From Simkania sp. (lineage in GTDB: Bacteria; Chlamydiota; Chlamydiia; Chlamydiales; Simkaniaceae), in contig JANQJX010000244.1 of the NCBI GenBank assembly GCA_028281425.1, forward strand, positions 1-36,886: a stretch of DNA of 36,886 nucleotides. Direction: 5' to 3'. How positions within the stretch are numbered: the first letter of the stretch is position 1; every line of letters begins with the position of its first letter. The notes beneath the pieces are model-generated. The model searched no databases. It was not told the origin of the DNA and worked only from the letters and a program-made list of their open reading frames with translations. Made by a program: the position numbers and the translations under genes. Shown in pieces: positions 5,145 to 23,492 of the stretch.

Positions 5145-5357
5145 TTGTACGTGAAAAAGGTTTTAATTTTTTTAGTAAGGCTTTATCAATTTCTCATCCG
5201 CCCCCTGTTGGGACAGTGCTGCCGCTTTTATCCCTCATGCTCTGATTATGCTCTTTGTGCAATCAAGAAATATGGGTCCTTTAAAGGAATTTATTTAACT
5301 CTAAAACGCCTTTGTAAATGTCATCCTTGGCATCCAGGAGGCATCGACTTTCCTTAA
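5145..5357 (+). CDS. yidD: Membrane protein insertion efficiency factor YidD
   Basis: Hallmark motif [12 protein letters not shown]...[12 protein letters not shown]. The track start is TTG at 5145. GTG at 5151 has better spacing to the AGAGG at 5137-5141. The TAA stop (5355-5357) is also the first 3 nt of a family-A MITE. Confidence 0.85.
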
Positions 5358-5700
5358 ACCCCTATCTCTCATTCCCCCTATGGAAAAAGAGTTGCACAAC
5401 TGTTTTCAGAAACGCCAAGAAATTCTCGAATGGATAAGTTTGCAACCTAACCTAAAGGGCCTGCCTTGAAATGGAAAGTCATTGTCTAAAGGATCTTTTC
5501 TCCTTAGGCCTTAAGATAAGTCGCATCTCCTTTTGCTCTCAAGAGTCTAATGCATTTGCACCTTTCACAATTTTCGAAAAAAATCTCAAGGGATCCGAAC
5601 AATTTTTCAGTTCAAGGCAGGCTCCTAAAAGAATTTATCGGATGTGTGAGCGAAACAGAGCATGTGGATTTTTCAGAAAGGGAAAGCGAAATGCGAGCTA
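5355..5700 (+). mobile_element. MITE family A copy interrupted by a nested family-B MITE
   Basis: A-left runs 5355-5456 (...GCCAAGAAATTCTCGAATGGATAAGTTTGCAACCTAACCTAAA). A-right runs 5625-5700 (CTAAAAGAATTTATCGGATGTGTGAGCGAAACAGAGCATGTGGATTTTTC...GCGAAATGCGAGCTA). Removing B and one CTAAA leaves 173 bp, matching uninterrupted copies. Confidence 0.8.
5457..5624 (+). mobile_element. MITE family B copy (168 bp) nested in family A
   Basis: Termini are GGGCCTGCCTTGAA...TTCAAGGCAGGCTC, flanked by the direct repeat CTAAA (5452-5456 and 5625-5629). Collinear with the B copies at 15908, 20643 and 23162. Confidence 0.8.
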
Positions 5701-5706
5701 AAATCC

Positions 5707-6870
5707 CTATCTCTCTCTTTCTTCTCCTTTAGGGATAAGAAGAACTTTTCCTGGACACAGCAGGGTAGATTCAAGAGCGTTGGCTTTCTTAAGTTCTTCA
5801 ATGGAAATATTAAATCGACGGGAAAGACTCCAAAGAGAATCTCCTTTTCGTATCACATATTCAATCGCCTTTTCTTGGGGACTTTTGGGACGAATAAAAG
5901 CCTCGTTTTCCCACAAAACAAGTCTTTGTCTTGCAAGATCACAAATCGCATTGGAACGCAAAGAAGTCTCAACAATGCGTTTTAAAAAAGCTATGACTGG
6001 TTCTGTTGGTTGATCTAAAAGCTTTAAAAAAATTTCCAGCTGCTTGTTGCTCAAACAATTGTAAGCATAAGCGGGATTGAGAGTCACAAGCAAATAAGCT
6101 GCAAGTTTTGAATGATGAAAACCACTCAAAAAAGCTCCTAAATCAAGAATCTCACCTGCGGGATTTTCTTCTATAGAAATACAGACAGAAACGATTTGCT
6201 TCCAATTGCCATCTAAAAGCAGCTTAAGAATGATCTCTTTTGGAAAAATAAAAGGAAGACGATTAAAAGCTTTTTCAATAAGATAAAATTCTTTAGAAAG
6301 AAAAAAAGTCTCTTTAAGAGATGAGGGCGTTTCTCCTTTGAATTCTTTAAGTTTCTCAAAAAGACCTTGAGGAGTGAAAGGCCATTTTTCGAAATGAGCA
6401 AAAAAGACAATCGCCCTAAATTTCTCATCATCAAGTCCAGGAAAAAGGGGGAGATCTAGATTCATTTCTTTGAGATGAAAAAACCGAGTTTCCAATTTTT
6501 GCCCTGAAAGCGCTCTTTCTATATCGAAAAAATACCTAGAAACAAGCGCAGAAAGAGCAAGATCTCGTTTGCAAAATCCCTGTTCAACCAGTTTCGAATT
6601 TTCTAGTTTTTTTAAAAGATCATTAAAAGGCAAATTGAGATATTTTTTCAAAATCTCTTGATTTGTCAAAGAAAAAGAAGAAAAAATAGATTTTTTTGGA
6701 ACAAAGATTTTCTGACGAAAGAGAAGTTCAATTTTTTTTTCTTTTTTAAGAAAAAAAGTGAGAAATGTCGCAATCAGTCCAATATTAAAAGTCACACTGA
6801 TCATGAGTGCTTGAACAAGGAGTTTAGAGCGTTTATAAAAAAGATTTTTAAGATAGGTTTCTTCTTGCAT
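5707..6870 (-). CDS. Membrane-anchored protein with C-terminal LysM peptidoglycan-binding domain
   Basis: N-terminal TM segment (LLVQALMISVTFNIGLIATFLTFFL). The C-terminus YVIRKGDSLWSLSRRFNISIEELKKANALESTLLCPGKVLLIP fits the LysM consensus. Confidence 0.7.
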   Translation of the reverse strand: MQEETYLKNLFYKRSKLLVQALMISVTFNIGLIATFLTFFLKKEKKIELLFRQKIFVPKKSIFSSFSLTNQEILKKYLNLPFNDLLKKLENSKLVEQGFCKRDLALSALVSRYFFDIERALSGQKLETRFFHLKEMNLDLPLFPGLDDEKFRAIVFFAHFEKWPFTPQGLFEKLKEFKGETPSSLKETFFLSKEFYLIEKAFNRLPFIFPKEIILKLLLDGNWKQIVSVCISIEENPAGEILDLGAFLSGFHHSKLAAYLLVTLNPAYAYNCLSNKQLEIFLKLLDQPTEPVIAFLKRIVETSLRSNAICDLARQRLVLWENEAFIRPKSPQEKAIEYVIRKGDSLWSLSRRFNISIEELKKANALESTLLCPGKVLLIPKGEERER

Positions 6871-6985
6871 GATCCTTTGAAAATAACAAAAAAATCACCA
6901 CCCGCCAATAGAAAAAAACAAAAGTTTTCTTTCTTCAATCGATAAAATCTGTTAAAATCGCTCAAAAATATGACCCCCTACATGT

Positions 6986-9391
6986 ATGCTTGTTCCTTTA
7001 TCTTGGCTCCGAGATTACCTTTCGACCGACTTATCTCCCCATCAGTTATCTGATGCAATGACACTTGCTGGCTTAGAGGTGGATCAAATCATCAAAAAAT
7101 CCTTCTCTTTTTCTGGCGTTGTTGTCGGAAAAATTATAGAGGTCAATCCCCATCCTTCTCATGAAAATCTAAAGGTTGCCCAAGTCTTTGATGGAAAAAC
7201 CACTTTGCAAGTCGTCTGCGAAGCTTCCTGTTGTCAAAAAGGGCTTATCACTGCTTTTGCAAAAATAGGTGCAAAGCTTACTGATGCTTCGGGAAAAGTT
7301 TTAGAAATTAAAAAAGCCACTCTATATCAAGTTGAGTCTTATGGAAAGTTTTGTTCAGAAAAAGAACTTCTCTTATCAGATGCTCATGAAAAAATTATGG
7401 AGCTCCCATGGGACTCCCCTCTTGGAACAGATCTCACCCAACTTTTTGAAGATGTGATTCTCGAAGTCTCACTCACCCCCAATTTAGGCCATTGTATGAG
7501 CATATGTGGGATAGCACGAGATCTTGCTGCGATTTTAGATATTCCCTACAAACGTTCTCCTGTTCAATTGATTGAAAATCAAGAAAAAAAAATAGATGAG
7601 ATGATTCAAATCGAAGTCAAAGAAAAAAAGGGGTGTTTACGCTATTTAGCCCGATTACTTCAAAACGTTCAAGTGGCTCCTTCTCCTTTTTGGCTTCAAA
7701 ACCGGCTTCAATCAGCAGGTATTAGGAGGATTAATAATATTGTTGATGCCACAAATTATGTCATGCTTGCATCAGGACTTCCCATCCATGCTTTTGATTA
7801 TGACAAAATAGCAGGACACCAAATAAGAGTCGATCAAACCCAAAAAGAAATTTCTTTTGTAACCTTAGATGAGAAAACAGTCAAAGTTCCTCCTTCTACC
7901 CTTATGATTTGGGATCGAGATAAACCCATTGCTATTGCAGGGATTATGGGAGGCTCTAATTCGCAAATCAGTGAAAATAGCTCCCGTATTTTATTAGAAG
8001 CAGCCCATTTTCATCCCTCTTTTATTCGAAAAGCAAGTCGTAGCATGCATCTTCGGAGCGACGCCTCAAACCGCTTTGAGAGAGAAATTGACCCTAAAGG
8101 CATTGCTCGTGCCCTTGATGAAGCAGCTTCTTTGATCCAAAAACTTGCAAAAGGGGAAATCCTAAAAGGAAAAATTGATGATCATGTTCACTCCTACACC
8201 CCTAAAAAAATCTTTTGTCGTATCGACTATGTCAATCAGATTTTAGGAACAGCCTTTAGTATTGGTGAAATTGAATCTTTTTTAAAACGATTAGAAATGC
8301 AGATCCTCTTCCAAAATGAGGAAAAATTAGAGGTTCTTATTCCTTCTTATCGGAATGATATTGAAGAGGAAATCGATTTAATTGAAGAGATCGCTCGTAT
8401 TTATGGATACAACAACATTAAATCCAGTGAAAAACATGCCATTCATTCGCCTCTTCCTCCGGCACCTCTTTTTCTGGTTGAACAAAAAGTACGCTCTCTT
8501 CTTTTACGCGAAGGACTCCAAGAATTTTTAACTTGCGATTTAATCAGTCCTGAACTTTCCCAGCTCTTCTTAGAAAAAGCCCTTCCAAAAGAAGAACACA
8601 TCCATGTTTTACACCCAACCTCCATTGATCAATCGGTTTTACGTTCTTCTTTACTTCCCGGATTGCTGGTGGCAATTAAAAGAAATTTTGATAAGCAATG
8701 TTTCAATATTTCTGCTTTTGAAATAGGACGTATTCACTTTAAGGACAAAAAACACTTTAAAGAACAATCAACAGCAGCTATTATTTTAACAGGAAATCGA
8801 ACTCCTCATTTCTGGAATCAGCAAAATGAAAAGGTCGATTTTTTTGATCTAAAAGGAATTGTAGAAAACCTCTTAGAAAACTATGGGATTAAAAAAACTT
8901 CTTTTATCCCTTCAAATTTGCAAAGCTTTCACCCTTATAAGCAAGCATTGATTCAAAGCAATGAGATGCAAATAGGAATCTTAGGAGAAATTCATCCTAA
9001 AACATTAAGCGTTCTCAATCTCTCTAAACCTCTTTTCTTTGCACAAATCAATTTACATCCCCTATTTGATCTTAAACCTGGATTTCCTCAGGTAAAACCT
9101 CTGTCTCAATTTCCGGGATCTGATCGTGACTGGACTTTTACTCTCAGTAAGACAACTCCCATCGATATCATTTTAAATGCTATTTCTCGTATCTCTTCAA
9201 AACTCTTAAAAGAGGTTGTTCTACTTGATATTTATGAAAGTGAAAAAATTGGTCACGATCAACGAAACATCACTTTACGTTTGACTTATCGAGATGACAA
9301 AAAAACCCTCACACAAAAGCAAGTAGAAAAAGAACACCATCATCTGATTCATCTTATCGCTAAGAAATTTCATTTATCTTCCCCTTTTTGA
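6986..9391 (+). CDS. pheT: Phenylalanine--tRNA ligase beta subunit
   Basis: Length is 801 aa. N-terminus MLVPLSWLRDYL is typical of PheT. A tRNA-binding OB region (VVGKIIEVNPHPSHENLKVAQV) is present, along with B3/4 and B5 regions and a C-terminal FDX-ACB-like end. Confidence 0.9.
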   Translation: MLVPLSWLRDYLSTDLSPHQLSDAMTLAGLEVDQIIKKSFSFSGVVVGKIIEVNPHPSHENLKVAQVFDGKTTLQVVCEASCCQKGLITAFAKIGAKLTDASGKVLEIKKATLYQVESYGKFCSEKELLLSDAHEKIMELPWDSPLGTDLTQLFEDVILEVSLTPNLGHCMSICGIARDLAAILDIPYKRSPVQLIENQEKKIDEMIQIEVKEKKGCLRYLARLLQNVQVAPSPFWLQNRLQSAGIRRINNIVDATNYVMLASGLPIHAFDYDKIAGHQIRVDQTQKEISFVTLDEKTVKVPPSTLMIWDRDKPIAIAGIMGGSNSQISENSSRILLEAAHFHPSFIRKASRSMHLRSDASNRFEREIDPKGIARALDEAASLIQKLAKGEILKGKIDDHVHSYTPKKIFCRIDYVNQILGTAFSIGEIESFLKRLEMQILFQNEEKLEVLIPSYRNDIEEEIDLIEEIARIYGYNNIKSSEKHAIHSPLPPAPLFLVEQKVRSLLLREGLQEFLTCDLISPELSQLFLEKALPKEEHIHVLHPTSIDQSVLRSSLLPGLLVAIKRNFDKQCFNISAFEIGRIHFKDKKHFKEQSTAAIILTGNRTPHFWNQQNEKVDFFDLKGIVENLLENYGIKKTSFIPSNLQSFHPYKQALIQSNEMQIGILGEIHPKTLSVLNLSKPLFFAQINLHPLFDLKPGFPQVKPLSQFPGSDRDWTFTLSKTTPIDIILNAISRISSKLLKEVVLLDIYESEKIGHDQRNITLRLTYRDDKKTLTQKQVEKEHHHLIHLIAKKFHLSSPF

Positions 9392-9504
9392 ACTTTTCTT
9401 TCATTTTTGTTAATGCAAAATGAGTTTTAGGTTTATCTTCATTTTCCAAGATGATAAGATAGAGAAGTTGGATTACTACAAACTTTAGGTCATGAGGTTA
9501 AAGT

Positions 9505-10503
9505 ATGAAAAGATATTGTTCCTATTTTTTATCTCTTTTTTCACTTGTTGTTATGGGATGTCATTCTAGTCGAGATGAAGACAGTCAAGTGATTTCCAAA
9601 CGCTATATTCATAAATATGGATATGATGTGTCAAAAAAAGAATGGGAATCGGCGAATTACCCAGGTCAAGTCATTTCAACAATGCACAATGGTGTGACCC
9701 TTTCGGTCTCTTACGAAAATGGAATTTTACATGGACCCATGACAGCAACTTACCCCCATTCTCAAACAATTGAATCTTTAAGCATCTATGAAAAGGGGAA
9801 TTTAATCAAAAAAAAGATCTATGATATTCGAGGAACCCCCAAAGAAGAAACAGAATTTCTCTCTCCTTCTCATATCAAAATCTTTCGATGGTTTTTTTCT
9901 GGCACTCCCTTGAGTATCGAAGAATATCACAATAGCGAACTGCTTGAAGGGGAATATTACAATAAGAAAAATGAACTGGAAGCGCGAGTGATCAAGGGGA
10001 AAGGAATGCGTATTACCCGCAATCAGCGAGAAGAAATCGTTGCAAAAGAGACCATTGAAAATGGATATCCCATCTTATCTGAAACATTTCACTCCCATGG
10101 TATTCCTCATACAGTTACACCTCTTTTAGGAGGTCAAATTCATGGTGAAAAAAAAGTTTTTGCCCCTACAGGAGAACCTATTTCTGTCGAAACCTATGAA
10201 AAAAACGTCTTGAGTGGGCTTGCTTATTATTACCAAAATGGTTGTCTCTATCTCGAAGTGAATTATAAAGAGGGTAAAAAGCATGGTTTAGAAAAACATT
10301 ACGTTGACGGGGAAACTATCATTGAAAAAATCAACTGGTATGAAGGTAAAAAACACGGCCCTTCTACTCTCTACTTTGATGATATGTCAAAGGTCAGCTG
10401 GTATTATAATAATAAAGCTGTGACTAAAGATCGCTATCGTCAGCTCATTCAACAAGAAGAAAATATTGCGATTATGAATGATCGTGCAAACGGGCTTAAT
10501 TAA
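9505..10503 (+). CDS. Lipoprotein with MORN-variant (YwqK-type) repeats
   Basis: Lipobox-like signal LFSLVVMGC. Repeated motifs: YENGILHGPMT, YEKGNLIKKKIY, YYQNGCLYLEVNYKEGKKHGLEKHY, WYEGKKHGPSTLYF. Confidence 0.7.
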   Translation: MKRYCSYFLSLFSLVVMGCHSSRDEDSQVISKRYIHKYGYDVSKKEWESANYPGQVISTMHNGVTLSVSYENGILHGPMTATYPHSQTIESLSIYEKGNLIKKKIYDIRGTPKEETEFLSPSHIKIFRWFFSGTPLSIEEYHNSELLEGEYYNKKNELEARVIKGKGMRITRNQREEIVAKETIENGYPILSETFHSHGIPHTVTPLLGGQIHGEKKVFAPTGEPISVETYEKNVLSGLAYYYQNGCLYLEVNYKEGKKHGLEKHYVDGETIIEKINWYEGKKHGPSTLYFDDMSKVSWYYNNKAVTKDRYRQLIQQEENIAIMNDRANGLN

Positions 10504-10933
10504 GTTTCCAAAGAAAGTAGTCAAAGCTGCTTAAAACACCCTTGAGTTTGACAAGGGAATAGTCACCCTCAACAAATCGTCTTATTGCTTCTAATGTGCT
10601 AAGGGAGAGGTGTCTCCAGATAGGGTTTATTTTAAAATAAGCATAAAATCGGAGAAATCACCTACTTTTCGATGAACTTCTTGATCCATCGACTTATTTC
10701 GTTTTTATAACATAATTTTTGCTTCAGATCGCAATAGGCCTACATTTTAAGAATTCGCCTGAACCTGTAGATTTTTATCTCTTACAAAGCCTTTAAAGCT
10801 TAACAATTTATCATCATCTTGAACAAGATCGACTGTGAAAACCTTTGATAAAGAGCATGCTTTTTGCATATGAATAAAATAGGTGGTCAAAAGGATACTA
10901 TCACCTCCTTTATGGAGAAGTTACTGCAAAAAA

Positions 10934-11035
10934 GGATTTTCCAGTTCAAGGCAGGCCCTTAAAAGAGCTATTTTGGAATATTCGAGATAACAGATATTTC
11001 ACACTTTCAAAGATGACTTTTGAGACATAAGGGTT
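10934..11035 (+). repeat. Degenerate remnant: 25-nt family-B terminus fused to a decayed family-A right half
   Basis: GGATTTTCCAGTTCAAGGCAGGCCC (10934-10958) matches a B terminus. It is followed by TTAAAAGAGCTATTTTGG...GAGACATAAGGGTTA, which parallels A (CTAAAAGAATTTATTGG...GCGAAATGCGGGTTA). Confidence 0.5.
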
Positions 11036-11157
11036 AAAGATTGGATTCCAAATCAAAAGAGGAAAAAAATGGCAGCAAGATAATAGGTATAGAAGTTTTA
11101 TTTTAAAAGACTTAAGAGAGGAAGGTCTAAATCGCCTTATCACCTGTGTGAGGGAAA

Positions 11158-11334
11158 ATGAACCAAGATCAACTAAAGAAAAAAATTGCAAAGCTTGAAT
11201 CTTTATGCGATCAATTACAAGCTGAAATGAATTATTTAGATAAGTTGTTGATCGAAGTGGGTTTTGAAGAAGGACTTAAAACCCTAAAAGCAGCAGCAAT
11301 TGAGCTCATCGAGAAAAAAAATCAATTAGAATAG
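11158..11334 (+). CDS. Small (58 aa) predicted coiled-coil protein, hypothetical
   Basis: Below the ORF-track cutoff. Translation is MNQDQLKKKIAKLESLCDQLQAEMNYLDKLLIEVGFEEGLKTLKAAAIELIEKKNQLE, with heptad-like spacing. A purine-rich AGGGAAA lies immediately upstream. There is no homology evidence. Confidence 0.3.
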   Translation: MNQDQLKKKIAKLESLCDQLQAEMNYLDKLLIEVGFEEGLKTLKAAAIELIEKKNQLE

Positions 11335-11432
11335 CTAAAAGGAATGCCTTAAACTAAAAAACTTTTCGGATCAACTGAGATTTTTTTAAAAGTGGTAAGA
11401 TAGGGGCTAGGGAATACTCATGGATTTAAATT

Positions 11433-12398
11433 TCAAGAATTGAATTTAAGTTTTTCATTAAAAGAAAGTTTTCGATAAGGCTTTGGTTTCGCTTCAATTG
11501 CTATTTCTCTTCGTCTAGGTGTTTGCAAACAAGAGGACGAGCAGCAGCCAAGAAACTTTTTTGTGCAATCCAAGCAACTAAGAAAAAGGTCATTACAGTC
11601 CATATTTGCACAATTATAAATAGTACTTGTCTTAGCATTGCAATGATGACATTTTCCAATCGGATCACTTTGACCTTCAGCAACAATAGGAATCACAAGA
11701 CGATCATCAAAGACAAAAAGTTCTCCAAGCCAATGCTCAGATCCTACTTCTACCCCATATTGAATGATACCTCCTTGAAGTTGGTAAACTTCAAGGTACC
11801 CTGCCTCTTTACAAAGGCAAGAATAAAATTCACATCTAATTCCTCCTGTACAAGACATTAAAATGGGTCTTCCTTCTTCTGGGGGATACCTTTTTTTGAT
11901 CTTTTCTAAAAAAAAAGGAAACTCTCTAAATGTTTTACATTCAGGACGTAAGGCTCCTTTAAAGTGTCCAACATCCCATTCGTAATCATTACGCACATCT
12001 AAAATCAAGATTTTATCATCTTTTTTATCAAGCATCTCTTTCCATTGAAGAGGGCTAAGATAGGCTCCTCTTTTAGAATAATCCACATGTTTGTCTAAAG
12101 CAACAAGCTGCTTGCGATATTTCACCGTTTTCTTGGGAAAGACATGTTCGTGATAAAGATGGGTTTTAATATCACTTTTTCTAAACGCTTTATTTTGAAA
12201 ATACCATTCAAGGAAAAGAGGAGCATCTTTTTTAAAAACACTCATTTGAGCATTAATCCCTTCTTCATTGATATAAATACGTCCTTGAATATCATGGCTC
12301 TTAAAAAAATCCTTAAAACTTTTGATAAGCTCCTTTGGATTCTCAATAGGATGAATAAGATAAAAAGAAAGAACGAAGTAATTCTGTGTTTTTTGCAT
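11433..12398 (-). CDS. trhO: Rhodanese-domain tRNA uridine(34) hydroxylase (UPF0176/YceA family)
   Basis: N-terminal YceA-like fold (VLSFYLIHPIENP...IQGRIYINEEGINAQMS). A rhodanese domain carries the active-site loop MSCTGGIRCE. The C-terminal tail is Cys-rich. Confidence 0.8.
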   Translation of the reverse strand: MQKTQNYFVLSFYLIHPIENPKELIKSFKDFFKSHDIQGRIYINEEGINAQMSVFKKDAPLFLEWYFQNKAFRKSDIKTHLYHEHVFPKKTVKYRKQLVALDKHVDYSKRGAYLSPLQWKEMLDKKDDKILILDVRNDYEWDVGHFKGALRPECKTFREFPFFLEKIKKRYPPEEGRPILMSCTGGIRCEFYSCLCKEAGYLEVYQLQGGIIQYGVEVGSEHWLGELFVFDDRLVIPIVAEGQSDPIGKCHHCNAKTSTIYNCANMDCNDLFLSCLDCTKKFLGCCSSSCLQTPRRREIAIEAKPKPYRKLSFNEKLKFNS

Positions 12399-12539
12399 AA
12401 GTTTGAGAGTTTATCAGATAAAAAAGCAAAACGTTCATAGTGAGAGTGCTCAAAACCTAGATCATGAGCAATTACACAGTTTAAAGCGGTTGTAGAAATT
12501 TATCTACAATTAAATTTATTTTTTGTTCTCATAACCGTT

Positions 12540-12563
12540 TATACCCTGTATTTTTACGCAAAC
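12540..12563 (+). repeat. Solo family-A left-TIR-like sequence
   Basis: TATACCCTGTATTTTTACGCAAAC resembles the A left TIR (TAGCCCTTATTTTACGCCACC). It lies 42 bp upstream of the full copy at 12582. Confidence 0.4.
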
Positions 12564-12581
12564 TGTAAGAAAAACATGGAC

Positions 12582-12754
12582 TAGCCCTTATTTTACGCCA
12601 CCTCTTTCGAAAAGGCACACACGATTGTTTTTTGAGGCCTAAGAAATTTTCGAATGGATAAGGGTGCAGCTTCACCTAAAAGAATTTATTAGATGTACCA
12701 GCGAAAAAAAGCATGTGGATTTTTCTAAAGTGGGCACGAGAAATGGGGGCCATA
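12582..12754 (+). mobile_element. MITE family A, full copy (173 bp)
   Basis: TAGCCCTTATTTTACGCCACCTCTTTCGAAAAGGCA...CTAAGAAATTTTCGAATGGATAAGGGTGCAGCTTCACCTAAAAGAATTTATTAG...GCATGTGGATTTTTCTAAAGTGGGCACGAGAAATGGGGGCCATA. It lies in the divergent trhO/rpsD spacer. Confidence 0.8.
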
Positions 12755-12868
12755 GCGCAAGCAAGTGATAAACTTAGGCTACGCAACAGACTTTACCCTT
12801 GAGCTAAATGAATCATTTAAATTAAGATAGCAAGTTGAACCTTTTAGGGTGAATTTTAAGGAGATAGA

Positions 12869-14429: not shown

Positions 14430-15804
14430 AACTCTTTTTGAAGCAAATGAAGAGGCTATAGAAAACAAAATTGTAACCGTATCTGGTTGGGTACGCACAG
14501 TTCGAAAGAAAAAATCTTTTACATTTATCGAAGTCAATGACGGTTCCTACTTCGAAAATTTGCAGGTGATTGCAGATCATAAGCTGAAAGATTATGAAAG
14601 CATGATCTCTTCTCTTTCAACGGGTGCTTCCCTTTCTATTACTGGAACAATTGCAAAAAGCTTAGGAAAAGGGCAAAAAATTGAGCTCCATGCTGAAAAA
14701 GTGACTCTCTATGGCTTTTGTCCAAACGATTACCCTCTCCAAAAAAAAAGACACTCCTTTGAATTTTTGCGTACTATTGCCCATCTGCGTCCTCGCACCA
14801 ACACGCAAGGAGCTGTAGCTCGCGTACGGAGTCGTCTAACCTACGCAGTTCATAAATTTTTTCAAGAACGGGGCTTTATCCATCTCCAATCCCCAATCAT
14901 TACAGGTTCGGATTGTGAAGGAGCAGGAGAACTTTTTCAAGTCACAACTCTCAACTTAGAAAACCTTCCCCGCAAAGAAGGTAAAATTGACTACAACCAA
15001 GATTTTTTTTCCAAAGAGGCTTATTTGAGTGTTTCTGGACAACTCAATGGAGAAGCCTATGCTCTTGCTTTATCAGATATTTATACCTTTGGCCCCACAT
15101 TTCGCGCTGAAAACTCTCATACGTCTAGACACCTCGCTGAATTTTGGATGATTGAACCCGAAATGGCCTTTACCGATTTAGATGGGATTTGTCTTCTTGC
15201 TCAAGAGTTTCTTACCACCCTCATTCAAGAAGCACTCACCCATTGCTTAAAAGACTTAGAATTTTTTAACCAATTTATTGAAAAAGGACTTATCGAAAGG
15301 CTCGAACATGTCATCAAAACTCCTTTTATTCGCCTTCCCTATTCAGAAGCCATTACGCTTCTTAAAAAATCACAAAGAAAATTCGAATATCCTGTCGAAT
15401 GGGGTCTTGACTTGCAATCAGAACATGAACGTTATCTCAGTGAAGAACATTTTAAAAAACCCTTGATTTTGACCGATTACCCTAAAGAAATTAAAGCCTT
15501 TTATATGCGTGACAATGAAGATGGAAAAACAGTTGCTGCTCTAGATGTTCTTGTTCCAAAAATTGGAGAAATTATTGGGGGAAGTCAAAGAGAAGAACGC
15601 TTGGATATTTTAAAAAGTAAAATTGAAAAGAAAGGACTCAATCCAAATGATTATAAGTGGTATCTTGATCTTAGAAAATTTGCCACAACACCTCATGGAG
15701 GATTTGGGCTCGGATTTGAACGTTTTGTGCAATTTATTACCGGAATTGAAAATATCCGGGATGTTATCCCTTTCCCTAGAATCCCTAATCAATGCGACTT
15801 TTAA
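14362..15804 (+). CDS. asnS: Asparagine--tRNA ligase
   Basis: OB anticodon-binding N-terminus ([25 protein letters not shown]). Class II motifs are present ([41 protein letters not shown]). The start is uncertain: the track ATG at 14362 overlaps nfo by 68 nt, and ATG at 14383 fits N-terminal length better. The TAA stop (15802-15804) is the first 3 nt of a family-A MITE. Confidence 0.9.
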
Positions 15805-16141
15805 CTCACATTTCTCACCAACTCTTTCGAAAAGGCATGCACGAATATTTTTTGAGACGCCAATAAATCTTCAAAGGAAAGGTTGCAACCTTTCCGAGAT
15901 AATTTATGGGCCTGCCTTGAACTGGAAAGTCATCGTCTAAAGGATCTGTTCTCCTTAGGCTTGACATCAGTCGCATCTCCTTTTGCTCTCAAGGGTATAG
16001 TGAATTTGCACCTTTCACAATTTTCGAAAAAAATCTCAATGAATCGGAACAATTTTTCAGTTCAAGGCAGGCCCTTTATTGAGTGTCTGGAAAAACAGGA
16101 GATACGGATTTTTCTAAAGTGGGCACGCGAAATGTGGGTTA
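15802..16141 (+). mobile_element. MITE family A copy interrupted by a nested family-B MITE
   Basis: TAACTCACATTTCTCACCAACTCTTTCGAAAAGGCATGC...GGTTGCAACCTTTCCGAGATAATTTAT[B]TTTATTGAGTG...GGATTTTTCTAAAGTGGGCACGCGAAATGTGGGTTA. TTAA lies at both flanks. The element fills essentially the whole spacer between the convergent stops of asnS and the 16147 ORF. Confidence 0.85.
15908..16074 (+). mobile_element. MITE family B, reference copy (167 bp)
   Basis: Perfect 17-bp TIR GGGCCTGCCTTGAACTG / CAGTTCAAGGCAGGCCC. A perfect 5-bp direct repeat TTTAT flanks it (15903-15907 and 16075-16079). Confidence 0.9.
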
Positions 16142-16146
16142 ACATG

Positions 16147-17301
16147 TCACCTTGTGTCATGAAACTTCTTTTGACTTAAAGCCATTCCTCCCAACCCAAA
16201 AAACAAGCAAACAAGAGCAATAAGAGACCCTAAATAGGGGATCGATGTCATAAGATAATAGGGAATGAGTGTGAATATAAAAAAAAGAGTTTGATGCTTT
16301 TGAAAATCAAAACGAGAAAAAAGTTGCTTTGCAGCCCAAGTGATTGTCAAGATTTTAGCACTGTAAAAACCAATCATGTTAATTGCAAGCAGAGTAAGAG
16401 CAAAAGGAATTCCTACAATCGTAATGAGAAATATAAAAAATAGTAGAGGAAAGATAATGACAAGAACCAAGCCAGCAAGAAAAGAGTGAAAAGGTCGCTT
16501 TTTTAAAACACTAAGAGCTAATTCAAGCCGTGCATGAAAATAGCGCATGAAAATAAGAGCAATTGCAAGCGTATAAAAAAAATTCATGATCAATCCAGTC
16601 AGCTTTGATCCTATTTTAAAACCTCTTAACACTTTCCCATGAAAGATAGAATAAAAAAAGGAGGGGTGATGGATAATTTCTCCTCTTATTTGAGCCTTTG
16701 AATTGATCACTGCTAATTGATTGCTCCAATACTCAAACTTATCTCCAACATAAGCTTTTGAAGTCAACCGCATCTGAGAGGCACAAACATACAGTTTTTT
16801 TTTGACTCGACTCGAAAAACGCAAGTTTGACGTATACACACGGGCATTATTTCCAACTACACCCCCCAAATCGACATTTCCCCCAACTACAACAACATTA
16901 TACCCCACATCAGCAACTGGAGCTAGTTCAAAGGTTGCACCTATAGCTGTGACATTTCTTCCAACATGTCCTGTGATGATCACTTGTCCTCCTAATATTC
17001 GAACATCTTGAGAAACCGTTCCAGAAATTTCAACGCTTCCCCCTGCAACAAGCACATCCCCGTGGATGACTCCATCAATAAATACTTGCCCCCCTAAAAT
17101 ATAAACATCTCCATTGACTGTACCCAAAATCTCAATCGTTTTGCCATATGCAAAAAAATCTTCATTCACAATCTCTTGGCTTGGCAAAATATGAATTCCA
17201 TCTTTTTCACTTGGGATTTCAAGTGATAAGAGCGCCCATTGAATCCACAAAAAAATTAAGGTAAAAGAGCAAGCTTGTCGCATGAGCTTGCATATCTCCA
17301 T
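16147..17301 (-). CDS. Bactofilin-like (polymer-forming/beta-helix repeat) domain fused to a polytopic membrane domain
   Basis: N-terminal signal/TM segment. About 150 aa of G-x-V-x-G-D/N-V type repeats follow (GTVNGDVYILGGQVFIDGVIHGDVLVAGGSVEISGTVSQDVRILGGQVIITGHVGRNV...). The C-terminal half has about 5 predicted TM helices. The ORF overlaps the hemA 3' end by up to 46 nt. Confidence 0.55.
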   Translation of the reverse strand: MEICKLMRQACSFTLIFLWIQWALLSLEIPSEKDGIHILPSQEIVNEDFFAYGKTIEILGTVNGDVYILGGQVFIDGVIHGDVLVAGGSVEISGTVSQDVRILGGQVIITGHVGRNVTAIGATFELAPVADVGYNVVVVGGNVDLGGVVGNNARVYTSNLRFSSRVKKKLYVCASQMRLTSKAYVGDKFEYWSNQLAVINSKAQIRGEIIHHPSFFYSIFHGKVLRGFKIGSKLTGLIMNFFYTLAIALIFMRYFHARLELALSVLKKRPFHSFLAGLVLVIIFPLLFFIFLITIVGIPFALTLLAINMIGFYSAKILTITWAAKQLFSRFDFQKHQTLFFIFTLIPYYLMTSIPYLGSLIALVCLFFGLGGMALSQKKFHDTR

Positions 17302-18275
17302 TTGGATATTTGTTTTTTGTAAAAAAGGTCCACTTGCTTTTCAATCACATTTTCAATGCGTGTTTCACAAAATTGGATTTTTTTACCTGTCACTTTTTGT
17401 TGACCATTGGCTATTTGACTCAAAGTATGAAGACTAAAAAGATCAATCAAAGGATGATAATGTAAAAGAGGGTCCATATTGCGTGGCATTCCCAGATCAA
17501 AAAGAATAATTTGCTTTTTTAGGTGTTTTAGCTTTCGACATTCCTTTAAAATATACCCATCATGGTAAGTTGCTGCAATCACCACATCAAATTGCATCCA
17601 ACGATCACACATTTCCCAATTATAAATCTTTAAGCTTAAGAATTTTTTATTAGGATTACGTGTTGTCATATAAAGATCATACTCCTTTTTCTTCATAAAA
17701 AAAGAAGCCATCGTGCGATTAATCATCGAATTGCCAACAAATAAAATGGACCTGCTCATTCTCTCTTTTTGCAAACGCTTTAAAATGGTAAAAACTGCAT
17801 CTGGCAATCGAGAATGAGAAGAGAAAACAGTCGTACGCATCTCTTTCCCAATTTTGAGCCCTTTTTGAAATAAATAATGGAGAGAAGAAGAGAGCTTACG
17901 CAAATGACGTGATCTTTCATAAGCCACCTTCACCTGACGTTGGACATCACTCTCTCCAAAAATAAGGCTATCCATGCCACAAATCACACGTCCTAAATGT
18001 AAAAAGCATTCTTGACCAAAATAAGAATAAAAAACTCCTTCAAAGGGTTCATGAATCTTTTCTCGAAGAAGCTGCAAAACTTTAATGTGTGTATCACTAA
18101 GACAAAAAGAAGAAAAATAAAGTTCACTACGATGACAAGTTGAAACTAAAACATAACTTGCTTCTAACTTAGAGTCCGATTGAGAAAATAGATGAGAAAA
18201 AATCTGAGTCATTTTTTCTCGCAAATAAATCAAAGGACAAGAAAACGAATTAATTCCAATAACACCAACTTGCAT
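17256..18275 (-). CDS. hemA: Glutamyl-tRNA reductase (short chlamydial-type)
   Basis: N-terminus MQVGVIGINSFSCPL plus the catalytic-Cys motif VLVSTCHRSELYF (consensus STCNRxEiY). A central NAD-binding-like region ILFVGNSMINR is present. Length is 339 aa. Confidence 0.8.
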   Translation of the reverse strand: MQVGVIGINSFSCPLIYLREKMTQIFSHLFSQSDSKLEASYVLVSTCHRSELYFSSFCLSDTHIKVLQLLREKIHEPFEGVFYSYFGQECFLHLGRVICGMDSLIFGESDVQRQVKVAYERSRHLRKLSSSLHYLFQKGLKIGKEMRTTVFSSHSRLPDAVFTILKRLQKERMSRSILFVGNSMINRTMASFFMKKKEYDLYMTTRNPNKKFLSLKIYNWEMCDRWMQFDVVIAATYHDGYILKECRKLKHLKKQIILFDLGMPRNMDPLLHYHPLIDLFSLHTLSQIANGQQKVTGKKIQFCETRIENVIEKQVDLFYKKQISKWRYASSCDKLALLP

Positions 18276-18644
18276 TTAAAAAAAATTTCTTTTTTTAAAG
18301 GATTTTACACCAATTTCTGTCATTAACTCATCTTATGCAAAAAATGGGATTAACCAAACAGAATTTTTTGGTTCAATTGATTTTTCAAATTCTTTGATTC
18401 GTTGTATCTTCCCCTTTTTGAATAAGGCAAGTTCATGATTGAAATTGGGATTCCCTTGTATTTTTTTTCATTGCTCCCTACTTGGAATTTGATATATCAC
18501 AAAATTTCATATAAATGAAATAGATTCAAAATGCAATGATTTGAGGAATTCAAAACGAGAGATTTCAGATTGCAACGCTCAAAAATACCCAAGCTTACGT
18601 TAAACTCACGTTTTTTTAGTGCGCTGAGGGGATTAGGGTCACAA

Positions 18645-19692
18645 TCAGAGGTTTAAAGAACCTTTTCTAGAAAGCCATTGGATGACAAGATCACGTGTTG
18701 CATGAGCACAAGCAACAAAAATATGCCCTTTATCAAAAATAGAGCGCAAAACCTCTTCCTTCAGGCGGAAGATCTAGAGCTCTCAGGCGCCTTTTTGCTG
18801 CTGCTTAATGGACTCCACGCAAAGTAGCGATGCATGCTTAACTCTCCAAAGTGCTGTTAAAGCACTAGGGAATCCTCTTCGTTTAGGGAGAGGAGGATGT
18901 CAATGGGAATCATAGCCATTTGTTCTTCTTTGTCACTGATGAGAACAGATTCACGAGGGATAAGCCAATCGTTTTCCGCAACAATCGTATAGAGTTGAAC
19001 GAGATCGCGATTTTTTTTGATACGTTCATAAATAAGCTCAATTCTCTTTAAAGTTTCATAGCAATAAGGGTAAAAAGGAGTTTCTATAGGCTTATCAATA
19101 TTTTTAAGACGTCCCGCAATGGAAATGACCTTGTCAACCGTCCTATTTTCAATCCATTTCTCTTGATCAAACGCATCATCAGCAGCAATAATAGTTCCAA
19201 GAGAGTGCCCTACGAGATTTAAGTAGGAGAGTTTCTGCTCCTGCTTCAAGATACATCTCTCGAATAGACCTAATTCTTTTGATAAGCGCTGTGACGCCCT
19301 CTCCTTCTTGGAAGTTGAAAGTGAAAACAGGGCCACAAAGGTCACCAAAATTTTCATCTTCCATAGAGTGAAGGAGAGGAAGCCATTCACCCTGGTTAGA
19401 TTGACTGGAATGAATAAGAATTGGTAGCAGGACATTTGGATTGGCATTTAGACACCCAAGATGGATTGCATCCGTAATAAAAAAAATCCTTTTTAGGTCC
19501 CCATAGATAGCGATCCCATAAAAACTGACTGAGCACATTTATCGAGAGAGCATCAATCTCTTCTTTTCCTCGTTCAAAAACACTGTTAGAACTTTCCTGT
19601 ATCTCCATACAAGAAGGTTGCGGAAAACGTTCCTTAGAAAAAAGAATAAGGGGGAGAAGAAATAGAAGAAAAAAAACACTTATGCATTTCAT
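18645..19692 (-). pseudogene. Secreted alpha/beta-hydrolase (lipase/esterase-like) pseudogene: at least 2 frameshifts plus a 167-bp element insertion
   Basis: Three overlapping track ORFs in three frames (19396-19692, 19179-19538, 18857-19447) jointly encode a signal peptide (MKCISVFFLLFLLPLILFS), PILIHSSQSNQGEW, nucleophile elbow LVGHSLGT and an acid-residue region AENDWLIP. A fourth piece (18645-18734) encodes DKGHIFVACAHATRDLVIQWLSRKGSLNL*, which carries the expected GH. Confidence 0.7.
18735..18901 (+). mobile_element. Miniature IS200/IS605-like element (PATE-like, 167 bp) inserted in the hydrolase gene
   Basis: The first ~57 nt are near-identical to 36682-36738. It is inserted 3' of TTATC with no target duplication. 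Subterminal hairpins lie at 18754-18772 (TCTTCC/GGAAGA) and 18873-18894 (TCCTCT/AGAGGA), plus AGTGCT-GTTAA-AGCACT at 18850-18866. In-silico excision joins ...ATGGCTATGATTCCCATT|GATAAAGGGCAT... in frame. Boundaries are ambiguous by 2 nt. Confidence 0.55.
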
Positions 19693-19787
19693 AAGCGAAG
19701 ACTTTAACTTAATCTAAAATAAATCCCCTTTCATGAAGACAACAAATCTATATTAATTCATACTATTTCAAAAAATTCATACACCGC

Positions 19788-20655
19788 ATGAGGTTCATGA
19801 TGTTTCGAATGATTTCTATGACCCTTCTTTTTCTCAATCCTTTCCTTTTTTCCAGTGACTCTCTAGTCAAGCAGCTCAAAGTGCGCCAATATGCCATTGT
19901 TCCTATTGAAACAAAGACAGAATGGTTTGATGAAGCTATTCAAGCATACGACAGCTTCTTAAAGCTCCCTGAAGAAGTGAAAAAAAAATATATGGCACAG
20001 TTTTTCCTTTGCACTCCCGCTCTAATTGCGGATATCGATTAGAAACTCACAATCACGGGAAAAACCTTAGAATGTACTTTCTATATCACCCCAAGCTCGA
20101 GTCTCAATGTCAATCATTTATAAAAGAAAACGCATCGATACGTTCTCTTTTCGAAAAAACCAAACCTCTATGGCAAACTTCAAATAGCTGTTTTAAAAAA
20201 GTCATTCATGAACTTAGCGCCTCTTTTCCTCCAAATGCCTATGATTCTATCTTTGCAAAAGATTCACATCAAGTACGCCTTGTTCTTGCTTTGATTAAGT
20301 ATTCCGATAAAGAAGAAAGAAAGCGATCAATAAGCCATTTTGACGGCGGATGTGCTAGCCTTGCGCTATTAGAAAGTGCTCCTGGCCTTCGAATTGGAAG
20401 CTGCGAAAAAACTCTATCTGATGCTGCTCATTGTAGAGGAACTGCTATTTTTTTCTCGGGAAAAACTTTAAGTCAATCGTTGGAGAAAGAAGTGGGATTC
20501 TTCCTGGTTGGCATGATGTCAGGCCTGGCTTAGGAAATAGATTTGCAATTATCGCCTTTCTCGATACACTCCATTCTAAAGGCGTCACAGAGGAAGAAAC
20601 TCATGAAAATCCCCTCAATATGGAACTTCGAAGTCCAATAAAGGGCCTGCCTTGA
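19788..20655 (+). pseudogene. 2-oxoglutarate/Fe(II)-dependent oxygenase-like pseudogene (2 frameshifts; 3' end runs into a family-B MITE)
   Basis: Frame 1 (19788-20042) encodes ...WFDEAIQAYDSFLKLPEEVKKKY. Frame 2 (20009-20533) encodes ...ISHFDGGCASLALLESAPGLRIG...AIFFSGKTLS, containing an HxD motif. Frame 3 (about 20495-20655) encodes GILPGWHDVRPGLGNRFAIIAFL, containing the distal His and an RxA/S motif. The terminal TGA (20653-20655) lies inside the B TIR. Confidence 0.55.
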
Positions 20656-20809
20656 ATTGAAAAATTGTTCCGATCCATTGAGATTTTTTTCGAAAATTGT
20701 GAAAGGTGCAAATTCACTATACCCTTGAGAGCAAAAGGAGATGCGACTGATATCAAGCCTAAGGAGAAAAGATCCTTTAGACGATGACTTTCCAGTTCAA
20801 GGCAGGCCC
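20643..20809 (-). mobile_element. MITE family B copy (167 bp), inverted relative to the 15908 copy
   Basis: GGGCCTGCCTTGAATTGAAAAATTGTTCCGATCCATTGAG...GACTTTCCAGTTCAAGGCAGGCCC. There is no flanking direct repeat (left ATAAA, right ATTTG). Confidence 0.85.
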
Positions 20810-20900
20810 ATTTGCAACCTCACCTAAAAGAATTTATTGGATGTCCCAATGAAACAGCGCCTGTGGATTTTTCTAGATTGGGCATGCGAAATGCGGGTTA
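20810..20900 (+). mobile_element. MITE family A, right half only
   Basis: ATTTGCAACCTCACCTAAAAGAATTTATTGGATGTCCCAATGAAACAGCGCCTGTGGATTTTTCTAGATTGGGCATGCGAAATGCGGGTTA. The left half is missing and the sequence abuts the B copy directly. Confidence 0.75.
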
Positions 20901-21073
20901 GCTCCATCAGCACATGGATGCCTAAGGGCATAAGAGCATGGACTAAAAACGGGTTCATTCTTAAGCTACTTTTATTGATTTTTGGACATGTTAGTCAAAT
21001 ACTTAATAAAAGTCAGTTAACACATCATCCATTTTTTAGAATTGACACATCTATTTTGCTTTCTCCCTTCACT

Positions 21074-21089
21074 AAAGTGGATCCACTTT
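21074..21089. promoter_or_regulatory. Perfect 16-bp palindrome AAAGTGGATCCACTTT (candidate dimeric-regulator site)
   Basis: Read directly from the sequence. It lies about 175 bp upstream of the small ORF pair at 21263/21453. No functional evidence. Confidence 0.25.
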
Positions 21090-21262
21090 AACTCAGTGCT
21101 CATCTCATATCTGCCACTTATTCAAAAAGCCGATGCCACAAAATAGAAGGAATTTTTCATGAGATTCCAGTTTGGAAAAGGGCTCATTATAAATTGAACT
21201 TTTTAATAAATATCCTTGCTGATAAAGTGAAAAAAAAATCGAAAAAAATTGAGGATAGCCTT

Positions 21263-21442
21263 ATGAAAGATATCTCTGGGGTCTCTGGAACAAGCCACTC
21301 TCAACATCCCATCTCCTCCGAAAACATTTCATCCAACGCAGCGCAAGCACAACAACTAGAAGAAGTTTTATCTTTTATGATCAAGCTTCCATCTCAACTC
21401 GCAAGCCTCAAAAAAGCAGATGAGAATCGTCTAAAAAAATAG
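21263..21442 (+). CDS. Small hypothetical protein (59 aa from the internal ATG)
   Basis: The track ORF 21194-21442 begins at a TTG. The ATG at 21263 is preceded by GAGGAT at good spacing. Translation is MKDISGVSGTSHSQHPISSENISSNAAQAQQLEEVLSFMIKLPSQLASLKKADENRLKK. Confidence 0.4.
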   Translation: MKDISGVSGTSHSQHPISSENISSNAAQAQQLEEVLSFMIKLPSQLASLKKADENRLKK

Positions 21443-21452
21443 GATTCTATTT

Positions 21453-21773
21453 ATGACTGAAACAAGTGGTGTAACCCCTCCAGGGTCAAGTAGTGGAAGC
21501 CCTCAAAGCTCAGACAGTTCTGAATTAAATGAAATTGCACAAACTCCCTATGGACAATCCTACCAGTTAAAAGGCAATACAGCTATGCTTCAATGGGTCA
21601 ATCATTTCTACCCTAATATGAGTGAAGATCAAAAAGAACAATTTGTCGAACAATTCAATATGAACCTTTGTAAGCAAGTGTCTCAAACAATTCAACAAGA
21701 TCTTTCTAAGATGCAAAAAGATGCAAAAAAAATGAAAGATGCCCAAGAAGGTATCATCGATTCTAACGATTAA
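21453..21773 (+). CDS. Hypothetical protein (106 aa) with Ser/Gly-rich disordered N-terminus
   Basis: AGGAT lies upstream of the ATG, and the ORF starts 10 nt after the preceding stop. The N-terminus MTETSGVTPPGSSSGSPQSS shares an SGV[ST] start motif with the upstream ORF. The C-terminus is helical and charged. Confidence 0.5.
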   Translation: MTETSGVTPPGSSSGSPQSSDSSELNEIAQTPYGQSYQLKGNTAMLQWVNHFYPNMSEDQKEQFVEQFNMNLCKQVSQTIQQDLSKMQKDAKKMKDAQEGIIDSND

Positions 21774-21808
21774 AAAGGACTCCAATTAAAATCTATTCCT
21801 TTTCTCCT

Positions 21809-22117
21809 TAGAGGAGACTCTCTCTGAATGCCACCTATGTTGAAAAGGACTTCCTTAAACTGAAAAATTGTTCCGATCCATTGAGATTTTTTTCGAAAAT
21901 TGTGAAATGTAGGGCTTTCTCAAACCTAAAGAGAAAAGATCCTTTAGATGAGGATTCTCCAGTTCAAGACAATTCCTGAAAGGCATGCTTGAGTGTTTTT
22001 TGAGGCCTAAGAAATTTTCGAAGGAAAGGTGGTAAACTTGGGCTAAAAGAATTTATTGGGGGTGCCAGCGAAACAGAACATGCGGATTTTTCATAGGGGC
22101 AGGCGACATGCGGGTTA
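21809..22117 (+). mobile_element. MITE family A copy (degenerate left end) carrying a degenerate nested family-B copy
   Basis: ...CTGAATGCCACCTATGTTGAAAA[B]CTGAAAGGCATGCTTGAGTGTTTTTTGAGGCCTAAGAAATTTTCGAAGGAAAGGTGGTAAACTTGGGCTAAAAGAATTTATTGGG...GCGGATTTTTCATAGGGGCAGGCGACATGCGGGTTA. The last 3 nt (22115-22117) are the rluD stop codon on the reverse strand. The left boundary is approximate. Confidence 0.65.
21847..21975 (-). mobile_element. MITE family B, degenerate copy with internal deletion (about 129 bp)
   Basis: GGACTTCCTTAAACTGAAAAATTGTTCCGATCCATTGAGATTTTTTTCGAAAATTGTGAAA...CCTAAAGAGAAAAGATCCTTTAGATGAGGATTCTCCAGTTCAAGACAATTC. The TIRs are mutated and about 40 bp of core are replaced. Confidence 0.6.
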
Positions 22118-23056
22118 GGTGATATCCTCAATGTGAGTAAAAAATTTTTTCAAGCAATGAGAAAAATCGCAAGGAAAAGGAGCTGTCAGATGGAGAGGAG
22201 TCTTTTTCACTGGATGTATAAGGAAGATCTTCCATGCATGAAGCATTTGTCGAGAGATTTGAAATTTATCGTTAATTTGAGAAAATCCGTAGAGGGAATC
22301 GCCTAAAATAGGGGCATTTTGAGACCTAAGATGGACTCGGATTTGATGGGTACGCCCTGTGATAAGTTTTGCTTTTATCAAAGAGAAATAGGCCGTTTTT
22401 TGAAGGAGAAAAATTTCTGTGATAGCTTCTTTTCCTCCTTCTTTTAAGAGACTCATTTGTTCTCTTTTTCTAGGATTTCTTCCAATGGGAACATTAATGA
22501 TAGAAACATTTGGATTTCCAACTGTTATTGCTAGGTAGGTTTTTTCGATCTTTCTTGAACTGAACTGTTCAATTAAATTTTGATAGGCTTCATATGTTTT
22601 TGCCCCAACTAATATTCCTGAAGTCTCTTTGTCTAAACGATGAACTATTCCAGGACGAGACGCAAGACCTGGCAATTGATTTTGACTACAATGAAAAGCA
22701 AGAGCATTTGCAAAGGTTTGACTTGGATGTCCTGGAGCAGGATAGACAACCATCCCCGCTGGTTTATTCACACAGATTAAATCTTCATCTTCATAGAGGA
22801 TTTCAAGAGGAATAGCCTGGGGTATGAGGTCTAATAATTGAGGAAAGGTAAAAATAACTTCAATCCTATCATTTTTTTTAATAAAATGCCCTTTTTTGAC
22901 AATATTCCCATTGATACGAACATTTTTTTTCTCGATGAGACGTTGAAAATAAGAACGAGAATAATTGGAAAAGCGCTTTGAGAGACATGTATCTAAACGC
23001 TCTTTTCCTTCTTGCTCAAAATGAAAAACATCTTTCAACAACTCATTTTCCATCAC
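22115..23056 (-). CDS. rluD: 23S rRNA pseudouridine synthase, RluA family (RluD subfamily, N-terminal S4 domain)
   Basis: S4-like N-terminus (RSYFQRLIEKKNVRINGNIVKKGHFIKKNDRIEV). Catalytic motif GIVHRLDKETSGILV. Also TGRTHQIRVHL. Confidence 0.8.
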   Translation of the reverse strand: MMENELLKDVFHFEQEGKERLDTCLSKRFSNYSRSYFQRLIEKKNVRINGNIVKKGHFIKKNDRIEVIFTFPQLLDLIPQAIPLEILYEDEDLICVNKPAGMVVYPAPGHPSQTFANALAFHCSQNQLPGLASRPGIVHRLDKETSGILVGAKTYEAYQNLIEQFSSRKIEKTYLAITVGNPNVSIINVPIGRNPRKREQMSLLKEGGKEAITEIFLLQKTAYFSLIKAKLITGRTHQIRVHLRSQNAPILGDSLYGFSQINDKFQISRQMLHAWKIFLIHPVKKTPLHLTAPFPCDFSHCLKKFFTHIEDIT

Positions 23057-23161
23057 GTTCCAAAAATAGGTGACTATTTTTTAAAATCATATCCATGATA
23101 CCAAAAACCCACAAATTCTTGCTCACCTTTTCACTTCAACTGAAATTCTATCTTATTGAAA

Positions 23162-23329
23162 GGGCCTGCTTTGAACTGGAAAGTCCTCGTCTAAAGGATC
23201 TTTTCCCCTTAGGGTTGACATCCAGTCGCATCTCCTTTTGCTCCCAAGGGTATAGTGAATTTGCACCTTTCACAATTTTCGAAAAAAATCTCAATAGATC
23301 CAAACAATTTTTTAATTCAAAGCAGGTTC
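23162..23329 (+). mobile_element. MITE family B copy (168 bp)
   Basis: GGGCCTGCTTTGAACTGGAAAGTC...CAATTTTTTAATTCAAAGCAGGTTC, flanked by the direct repeat TGAAA (23157-23161 and 23330-23334). Confidence 0.8.
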
Positions 23330-23361
23330 TGAAATTGTCAATCAAAAAGATAGAATTTCGG

Positions 23362-23492
23362 CTTCAAATGCCCCTTCTTTCGAAAAGCCAAGAAATTCCC
23401 GAATGGATAAGTTTGCAACCTTATTCTAAAAGAATTTATTGGATGTATCGGAAGTCAAGGAGCATATGGATTTTTAATGAGTGATATCGGGA
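23362..23492 (+). mobile_element. MITE family A, partial/rearranged copy
   Basis: ...ATGCCCCTTCTTTCGAAAAGCCAAGAAATTCCCGAATGGATAAGTTTGCAACCTTATTCTAAAAGAATTTATTGGATGTATCGG...GCATATGGATTTTTAATGAGTGATATCGGGAT. A second A-left-TIR-like stretch (ACCCACAAATTCTTGCTCACC) sits at about 23107-23127. Boundaries are approximate. Confidence 0.55.

Follow-up and report, generated by a model that had tools for sequence, protein, structure and literature searches.

How one MITE (a miniature transposable element with inverted repeats) comes to lie repeatedly inside another is the question raised by a 36,886-nucleotide stretch of DNA (hereafter, the window); it is the whole of a metagenomic contig (36.9 kb) from an uncultured bacterium of the Simkaniaceae (Chlamydiota). 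Its genes are ordinary housekeeping genes, such as pheT, rpsD, lysS, hemA, and kdsA, and its ribosomal protein S4 shows 83% identity with that of Simkania and 86% identity with that of the nearest record. Two MITE families, referred to as A and B, occur among these genes, and a sequence-only reading of the window had proposed that B repeatedly targets A. This proposal did not hold up: only three (at most four) of the seven B events lie in A, 2.6 are expected from the make-up of the spacers that B occupies, and the nearest relative carries B without A. Targeting of A by B beyond its availability is thus not supported. The nesting was probably brought about by the availability of A together with purifying selection, and not by recognition of A.

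Family B is composed of elements of 167–168 bp with terminal inverted repeats (TIRs). In a scan of the window, the 17-mer of the TIR, GGGCCTGCCTTGAACTG, occurred eight times at three or fewer mismatches, as compared with 0.03 expected occurrences. The TIR is perfect over 17 bp in one copy (B15908) and has one mismatch per end in the others; if one R position is allowed, it reaches 21 bp. Five copies and two fragments were found in the 37 kb. The four full copies are 85–98% identical, the mean pairwise identity among the copies is ~91%, and copies differ by up to 15%. The B events and their target site duplications (TSDs) are as follows.

5457–5624, plus strand: B5457, full length, 168 bp; TSD CTAAA at 5452–5456 and 5625–5629; in the centre of an A copy
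10905/10912–10958, minus strand: old fragment of a B left end, ~47–54 nt; terminal 24 nt near-perfect, inner part diverged
11340–11404, minus strand: old fragment of a B right end, 5 nt past the stop codon of a conserved 58-aa open reading frame (ORF); not in A
15908–16074, plus strand: B15908, full length, 167 bp; perfect 17-bp TIR; TSD TTTAT at 15903–15907 and 16075–16079; in the centre of an A copy
20643–20809, minus strand: B20643, full length, 98% identical to B15908; no TSD, flanks AATAAA and ATTTG
21846–21976, minus strand: B21846, with an internal deletion and decayed ends; TSD TGAAA at 21841–21845 and 21977–21981; ~20 nt inside the left arm of an A copy
23162–23329, plus strand: B23162, full length; TSD TGAAA at 23157–23161 and 23330–23334; in the loop of a perfect 13-bp hairpin

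Perfect 5-bp AT-rich direct repeats flank four of the five B copies with complete ends, B20643 being the exception. With its TIRs, fixed-length TSD, small size, and multiple copies without a transposase gene (none is encoded in the 36.9-kb window), family B is a real MITE. The earlier description of B therefore stands, except that the perfect TIR is confined to B15908 and the perfect TSDs to four copies. All six of the occurrences recorded earlier are also present, while the second old fragment (11340–11404) had been overlooked. As for the first fragment, which had been taken for a 25-nt remnant at 10934 whose orientation rested on a single nucleotide, it is about twice that length, and nhmmer aligns positions 1–49 of the B model to it (E-value, 5.6e-5), so that the orientation call is sound.

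Family A is composed of elements of 165–170 bp (~167 bp) with imperfect TIRs of ~25–35 nt. A search with a profile hidden Markov model gave 10–11 copies in the window, and the dinucleotide TA abuts all six of the intact left ends and eight of the nine right ends. The copies are listed below.

1572–1740, plus strand: uninterrupted A, a paralogous empty site
5357–5698, plus strand: A interrupted by B5457, in halves of 5357–5456 and 5630–5698; TA on both sides
12584–12750, plus strand: uninterrupted A
15804–16139, plus strand: A interrupted by B15908; it takes up ~96% of the lysS/DUF8173 spacer, and the lysS stop codon ends on its first base
20811–20897/20898, plus strand: A lacking its left 79 positions (model positions 80–166)
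21826–22115, plus strand: A interrupted by B21846; its last base and the flanking TA form the stop codon of a minus-strand rluD-like gene
23359–23497, plus strand: A with the left arm decayed or deleted (model match, 23376–23497)
27265–27434, plus strand: uninterrupted A
33300–33413, plus strand: weak, decayed A (E-value, 1e-10)
34664–34828, plus strand: uninterrupted A

The mean pairwise identity is ~70% among the A copies, as against 91% among the B copies, and hence A is older than B. Three B copies (B5457, B15908, and B21846) interrupt A copies at three different A positions. When B and one TSD are excised from 5357–5698 and from 15804–16139, a colinear A is restored in each case; in the A centre, CTAAA-AGAA-TTTAT, a distance of 9 bp separates the two insertion points. 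As for B21846, 14 of the 18 nt on its left agree with the left end of A, and the register is the one expected. The three TSDs quoted earlier, CTAAA, TTTAT, and TGAAA near the A left end, could all be read from the sequence, the last copy (placed at 21847) being 21846–21976. Since the site, the TSD, the junction pair, and the orientation differ among the three events, and since their host A copies are only 64–70% identical to each other, these are independent insertions with intact TSDs, as the mixed orientation of B had already been taken to mean.

The same observations bear on another explanation, namely, that A and B were joined in a single event and the resulting composite was multiplied as one unit by the A machinery. 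The 98% identity between B15908 and B20643, and the 7-nt flank TTTATTG common to the two, might be expected of such a composite; the three nested copies, however, differ in A position, TSD, and orientation, and the low identity of their A hosts is similarly at odds with it. The junctions are not identical; identical junctions were the outcome that the sequence-only reading had named as fatal to independence. Amplification of a composite is refuted for the three TSD-bearing nested copies and could still hold for the B15908/B20643 pair only; as a general explanation it is very improbable.

The remaining B events are related to A less closely. B20643 lies 1 nt from the A copy without its left 79 positions, at the breakpoint of that copy. 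Its history is ambiguous: a deletion next to the element, a rearrangement, or gene conversion could each have produced this arrangement. An A left half flanking B20643, either inverted or direct, was considered and rejected (P = 0.09 and 0.24). B23162, which had been placed between A-like sequences, is 24–41 nt upstream of one A copy and has nothing A-like to its left. The flank of the fragment ending at 10958 is not significantly A-like (P = 0.16 against shuffled sequences), so that its supposed abutment on A near the 5457 site was rejected. Thus, of the earlier statement that five of six B occurrences are inside or directly abutting A, three insertions inside A and one abutment on a truncated A (B20643) remain; two or three of the seven events are outside A.

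Whether these numbers call for targeting depends on the null with which they are compared. The A share is 15–19% under a uniform-intergenic null and 18–23% under a null restricted to the observed pentamer classes. The uniform-intergenic null ignores the scarcity of non-coding DNA. We therefore took the A share of each B-holding spacer after removal of B, as follows.

tRNA-Leu/LysM spacer: A share 38%
lysS/DUF8173 spacer: A share 96%
orf106/rluD spacer: A share 75%
rluD/orf114 spacer: A share 34%
orf174/orf82 spacer: A share 18%

In the three spacers with nested copies, A accounts for 38%, 96%, and 75% of the non-coding DNA. Given the spacers occupied, the 2.6 B insertions expected in A compare with three observed (P for three or more, 0.54), and for this reason an excess of B in A beyond availability is not supported.

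Several points weigh against this conclusion. One is that B in A is ~4-fold enriched over the uniform-intergenic or pentamer-matched null, with a nominal P of ~0.01–0.04 based on three of the four TSD-bearing copies; the enrichment anticipated by the sequence-only reading was thus found under these nulls and disappears once the spacer is given. Another is that the spacer-conditional test may over-condition if B picks spacers for their A content. In addition, a central segment of A 14 bp in length took two clean insertions, and perhaps also B20643 with its TTTATTG flank, which is hot-spot-like. The last is that the sample consists of seven B events on a single 37-kb contig.

It is in this context that recognition of A has to be weighed: the B transposase would recognise a feature of A, e.g., the central AT-rich mini-palindrome C-TAAA-AGAA-TTTA-T, and insert there preferentially. 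The positions of B5457 and B15908, which are 9 bp apart with one on each arm of the TAAA/TTTA mini-palindrome, the recurrence of the B15908 flank at B20643, the ~4-fold enrichment mentioned above, and the precedent of an insertion sequence (IS) within a MITE, IS1111 in QMITE2 (PMC5896051), all speak for it. Nevertheless, we consider it unlikely. B21846 lies elsewhere in A, B23162 and both old fragments lie outside recognisable A, and no B occupies four or five of the A copies in the window; in the nearest relative, which has no A, the B family thrives, and the spacer-conditional expectation already equals the observation. Each A copy offers ~10 preferred pentamers, two of which are in the centre, and a central cluster is accordingly unremarkable. 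Hairpin-loop targeting was rejected, because the predicted DNA folds of six A copies put the insertion sites in no consistent loop. Recognition of an A-encoded site is not needed for the central hot spot; of the two mechanisms offered by the sequence-only reading, the safe-haven one fits the data. It is also rather doubtful that the B transposase has a real affinity for the central mini-palindrome (CTAAAAGAATTTAT), with A as a dedicated landing pad and MITE-on-MITE targeting in Chlamydiota. If targeting were true, the system would be a compact model of safe-haven site selection, for which the present data do not call.

A further explanation is local hopping, in which B would cluster regionally as its transposition favours nearby targets, and would overlap A since A is in nearly every spacer. 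All seven B events are located within 5.4–23.4 kb, no B occurs in the A copies at 1572, 27265, 33300, and 34664, and B15908 and B20643, 98% identical, are 4.6 kb apart. However, seven events on one contig cannot separate clustering from chance, and the B divergence of up to 15% means that there was no single recent local burst. As the main explanation local hopping seems improbable, although it is compatible with nesting by availability and does not exclude it.

Evidence bearing on the dependence of B on A was obtained from the nearest relative, L005 (ENA ERZ26858540 ctg224429), whose S4 is 86% identical and which provides a syntenic 20.6-kb locus. At least ten B-family copies or fragments of 70–74% identity, with TIRs of ~28–30 bp, are present in this locus, and no A was found there (best E-value, 0.23). 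Since L005 carries B without A, B does not need A. The spacers in which the B copies of L005 were found are those that hold B in the window as well, on the downstream side of LysM and of lysS and on the upstream side of the 58-aa ORF; MITEs are therefore accepted by the same small set of spacers in the two lineages. In the LysM and lysS spacers, the orientation of the L005 copies is opposite to that of the full copies in the window. It was also found that the B copies of L005 are nested with, or abut, other MITE families having related termini: at L005:17324–17597, an element of a family designated C lies inside B, and at L005 2118/2119, a B with the TSD ATAAA is placed directly at a C terminus. 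Piles of MITEs are the norm in this clade. In the more distant relatives L006–L012 (S4 identity, 83–84%), neither the A nor the B family was found, and the spacers are tiny; for example, the 58-aa ORF is separated from the rhodanese gene by 9–15 nt there, as against 97 nt in the window.

Taken together, these results are best accommodated by the following course of events, in which nesting results from availability. The intergenic spacers of the window organism, which in the ancestor ran from a few to a few dozen bases, have been colonised by two non-autonomous DNA transposons. A, which is IS630/Tc1-mariner-like, spread first and has since decayed to ~70% identity; B spread later, and its copies are ~91% identical. 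B is most likely moved in trans by a transposase of the DDE type that is encoded outside the window and cuts AT-rich pentamers, N[T/G]AAA in form, with a 5-bp stagger and in either orientation relative to the pentamer. Old A copies would by then have been most of the DNA where a new insertion is harmless, provided that selection acted as supposed here, and A also offers several preferred pentamers, its centre reading CTAAAAGAATTTAT. Because old A would be most of the harmless DNA and would supply the preferred pentamers, the surviving B insertions would often be inside A. The outcome is an ordinary nested transposable element (TE), safe-haven pattern.

Two features of A deserve mention apart from the nesting. 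One is that all 10–11 copies are on the plus strand, while the adjacent genes lie on both strands (two-sided binomial P, ~0.001). For a TIR element that duplicates TA, a strand bias of this kind would not be expected; it hints that insertion or retention is biased in connection with replication. Another is that two A copies sit at the TA of TAA stop codons (lysS, 15802–15804, and the rluD-like gene, 22115–22117), where the terminal base of A completes the codon. As A overlaps these stop codons by one base, the original spacers must have been very tight; in particular, the original convergent lysS/DUF8173 spacer was only ~7 bp.

The rluD-like pseudouridine synthase gene (22115–23056) is inverted relative to its counterpart at L005:20199–20621, and has MITE clusters with inverted B copies on either side in the window. 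The possibility that B21846 and B23162, both with TGAAA, mark an inversion of rluD through recombination between B copies or intramolecular transposition was rejected on flank-exchange logic, because both copies keep matching direct TSDs on the same strand.

L005:1–20621 as a whole is a jungle of MITEs: in addition to B-like elements, it contains the C family (termini GGGGGTGTTGAAATCTAGATTTTT), 55–65 bp mini-elements of little beyond two TIRs, and several nestings. The related terminal motifs GGG..TG.CTTRAAYCTGRAAA suggest that one transposase lineage moves several MITE families. The same locus has a degraded IS630-family element (L005:14070–14935) with TIRs of the type TATAGCGTTTTAAATTTAAAATTTC and a fragment of HTH_Tnp_IS630; the spacer that holds it is orthologous to that of the A::B locus 15804–16139 of the window. 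A fragment of the C family of L005 (67–79% identity) was also found in the window at 2160–2275, in the long recO/ankyrin spacer; this is the third MITE family there. A 69-nt direct repeat (18729–18797 and 36676–36744, 93% identical) belongs to neither A nor B and may represent another small repeat family. The cumulative GC skew drops monotonically over the window, which suggests a single replichore. The number of promoters and terminators found by a scan did not exceed that for shuffled sequence, and no such site was tied to A or B.

In all relatives examined, the 58-aa ORF (MNQDQLKKKIAKLESLCDQLQAEM...) keeps its position and its length; it has no match in Pfam. The two old B fragments lie on either side of it in the window, and an upstream block (~10840–10890) is also conserved with L005. 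The positions of the ORF are as follows.

Window 11158–11335: 58-aa ORF
L005:8171–8347: 58-aa ORF
L006:6848–7024: 58-aa ORF
L009:7261–7437: 58-aa ORF
L011:2285–2461: 58-aa ORF

Searches of wider collections gave neither family, the L005 locus with its B-family relatives being set apart. An exact-pattern scan for the B core gave no match in genome_contigs and three in metagenome_contigs, each a chance identity of only 24–25 nt and none of them B. The B TIR gave no match in viral_contigs and one in genome_contigs, a chance match in a high-GC Acidobacteria metagenome-assembled genome with no inverted partner; a transposase gene flanked by the TIR, which had been suggested as a target of search, was accordingly found neither in the window nor by these scans. 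Neither A nor B matched a family in Rfam, at the gathering threshold or by E-value, and A::B matched nothing in a plasmid collection. Frame +2 of B is open over the whole element, which yields spurious ORFs of 98 and 129 aa (15883–16179 and 23095–23484). Gene callers can pick up such ORFs, and the protein database has an entry for one of them that is the window's own product. When concatenated B-frame and A-frame peptides were compared with 5.8 billion proteins, only the window's own ORF or nothing meaningful was obtained, and an exact look-up of a window protein gave no other record. A full-text literature search gave no paper describing MITEs in Chlamydiae.

We finally compare the two families and their nesting with known systems. 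With TA on both sides, A is likely a MITE of the IS630/Tc1-mariner type. It shares with these Stowaway-like elements the TA flanks, the TIRs of 25–35 bp, and the length of ~167 bp, and an IS630-family transposase remnant exists in the nearest relative (L005:14564–14932). It differs from them in that its cognate transposase was not found in the search and all copies are in one orientation; the TIR of the L005 remnant also differs, being only loosely similar to that of A.

For B, there is a likeness to the TIMEs, whose TSDs are 5-bp and AT-rich (examples are AAATT, AAATA, AATAT, and TTTATT; PMC4133298). Because of its 5-bp AT-rich TSDs, its G-run termini, and one TSD-less copy (B20643) at a deletion breakpoint, as replicative elements can produce, B, which is similarly small, may be taken as a candidate Tn3-like replicative element. 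This is a lead only, since TIMEs have 38-bp inverted repeats shared with a Tn3-family transposon, whereas the TIR of B is 17–21 bp (~28–30 bp in L005) with a terminus that begins with GGGCC, and no Tn3-family transposase or matching inverted repeat was found for B.

The nesting itself has two sets of counterparts. In one, IS elements use small repeats: IS1397 and ISKpn1 use REP/BIME sequences as targets. Likewise, IS1111 inserts in QMITE2 of Coxiella burnetii (PMC5896051; PMC10969869). What these cases have in common with the present one is the repeated finding of a mobile element within short intergenic repeats. They differ in that one defined position is used in most or all copies by a site-specific mechanism, whereas B is found at three or more positions in A, and also outside A, and exists without A in the relative; insertion at a single defined position is therefore not what B displays. 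The landing-pad reading would resemble these REP-targeting IS elements, but between two non-autonomous elements.

The other set is formed by nested MITEs and TEs. MITE-in-MITE insertions in rice and maize were reportedly described by Jiang and Wessler in 2001, and nested MITEs are said to occur in Epichloe fungi. Nested TEs and insertions of IS elements in repeats are well known, while the two families of the window, and at least three when L005 is included, are undescribed; they occur in Simkaniaceae at very high density, and most of the non-coding DNA in this lineage is MITE-derived. The A::B pairs resemble the known nested elements in that a younger non-autonomous TIR element lies in an older one, with intact TSDs and with uninterrupted paralogous empty sites. 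They differ in that the genome here is a compact chlamydial one, in which the host element is most of the available spacer DNA. In this respect they provide a worked example of nesting from availability alone, and a caution against reading a TE within a TE as targeting.

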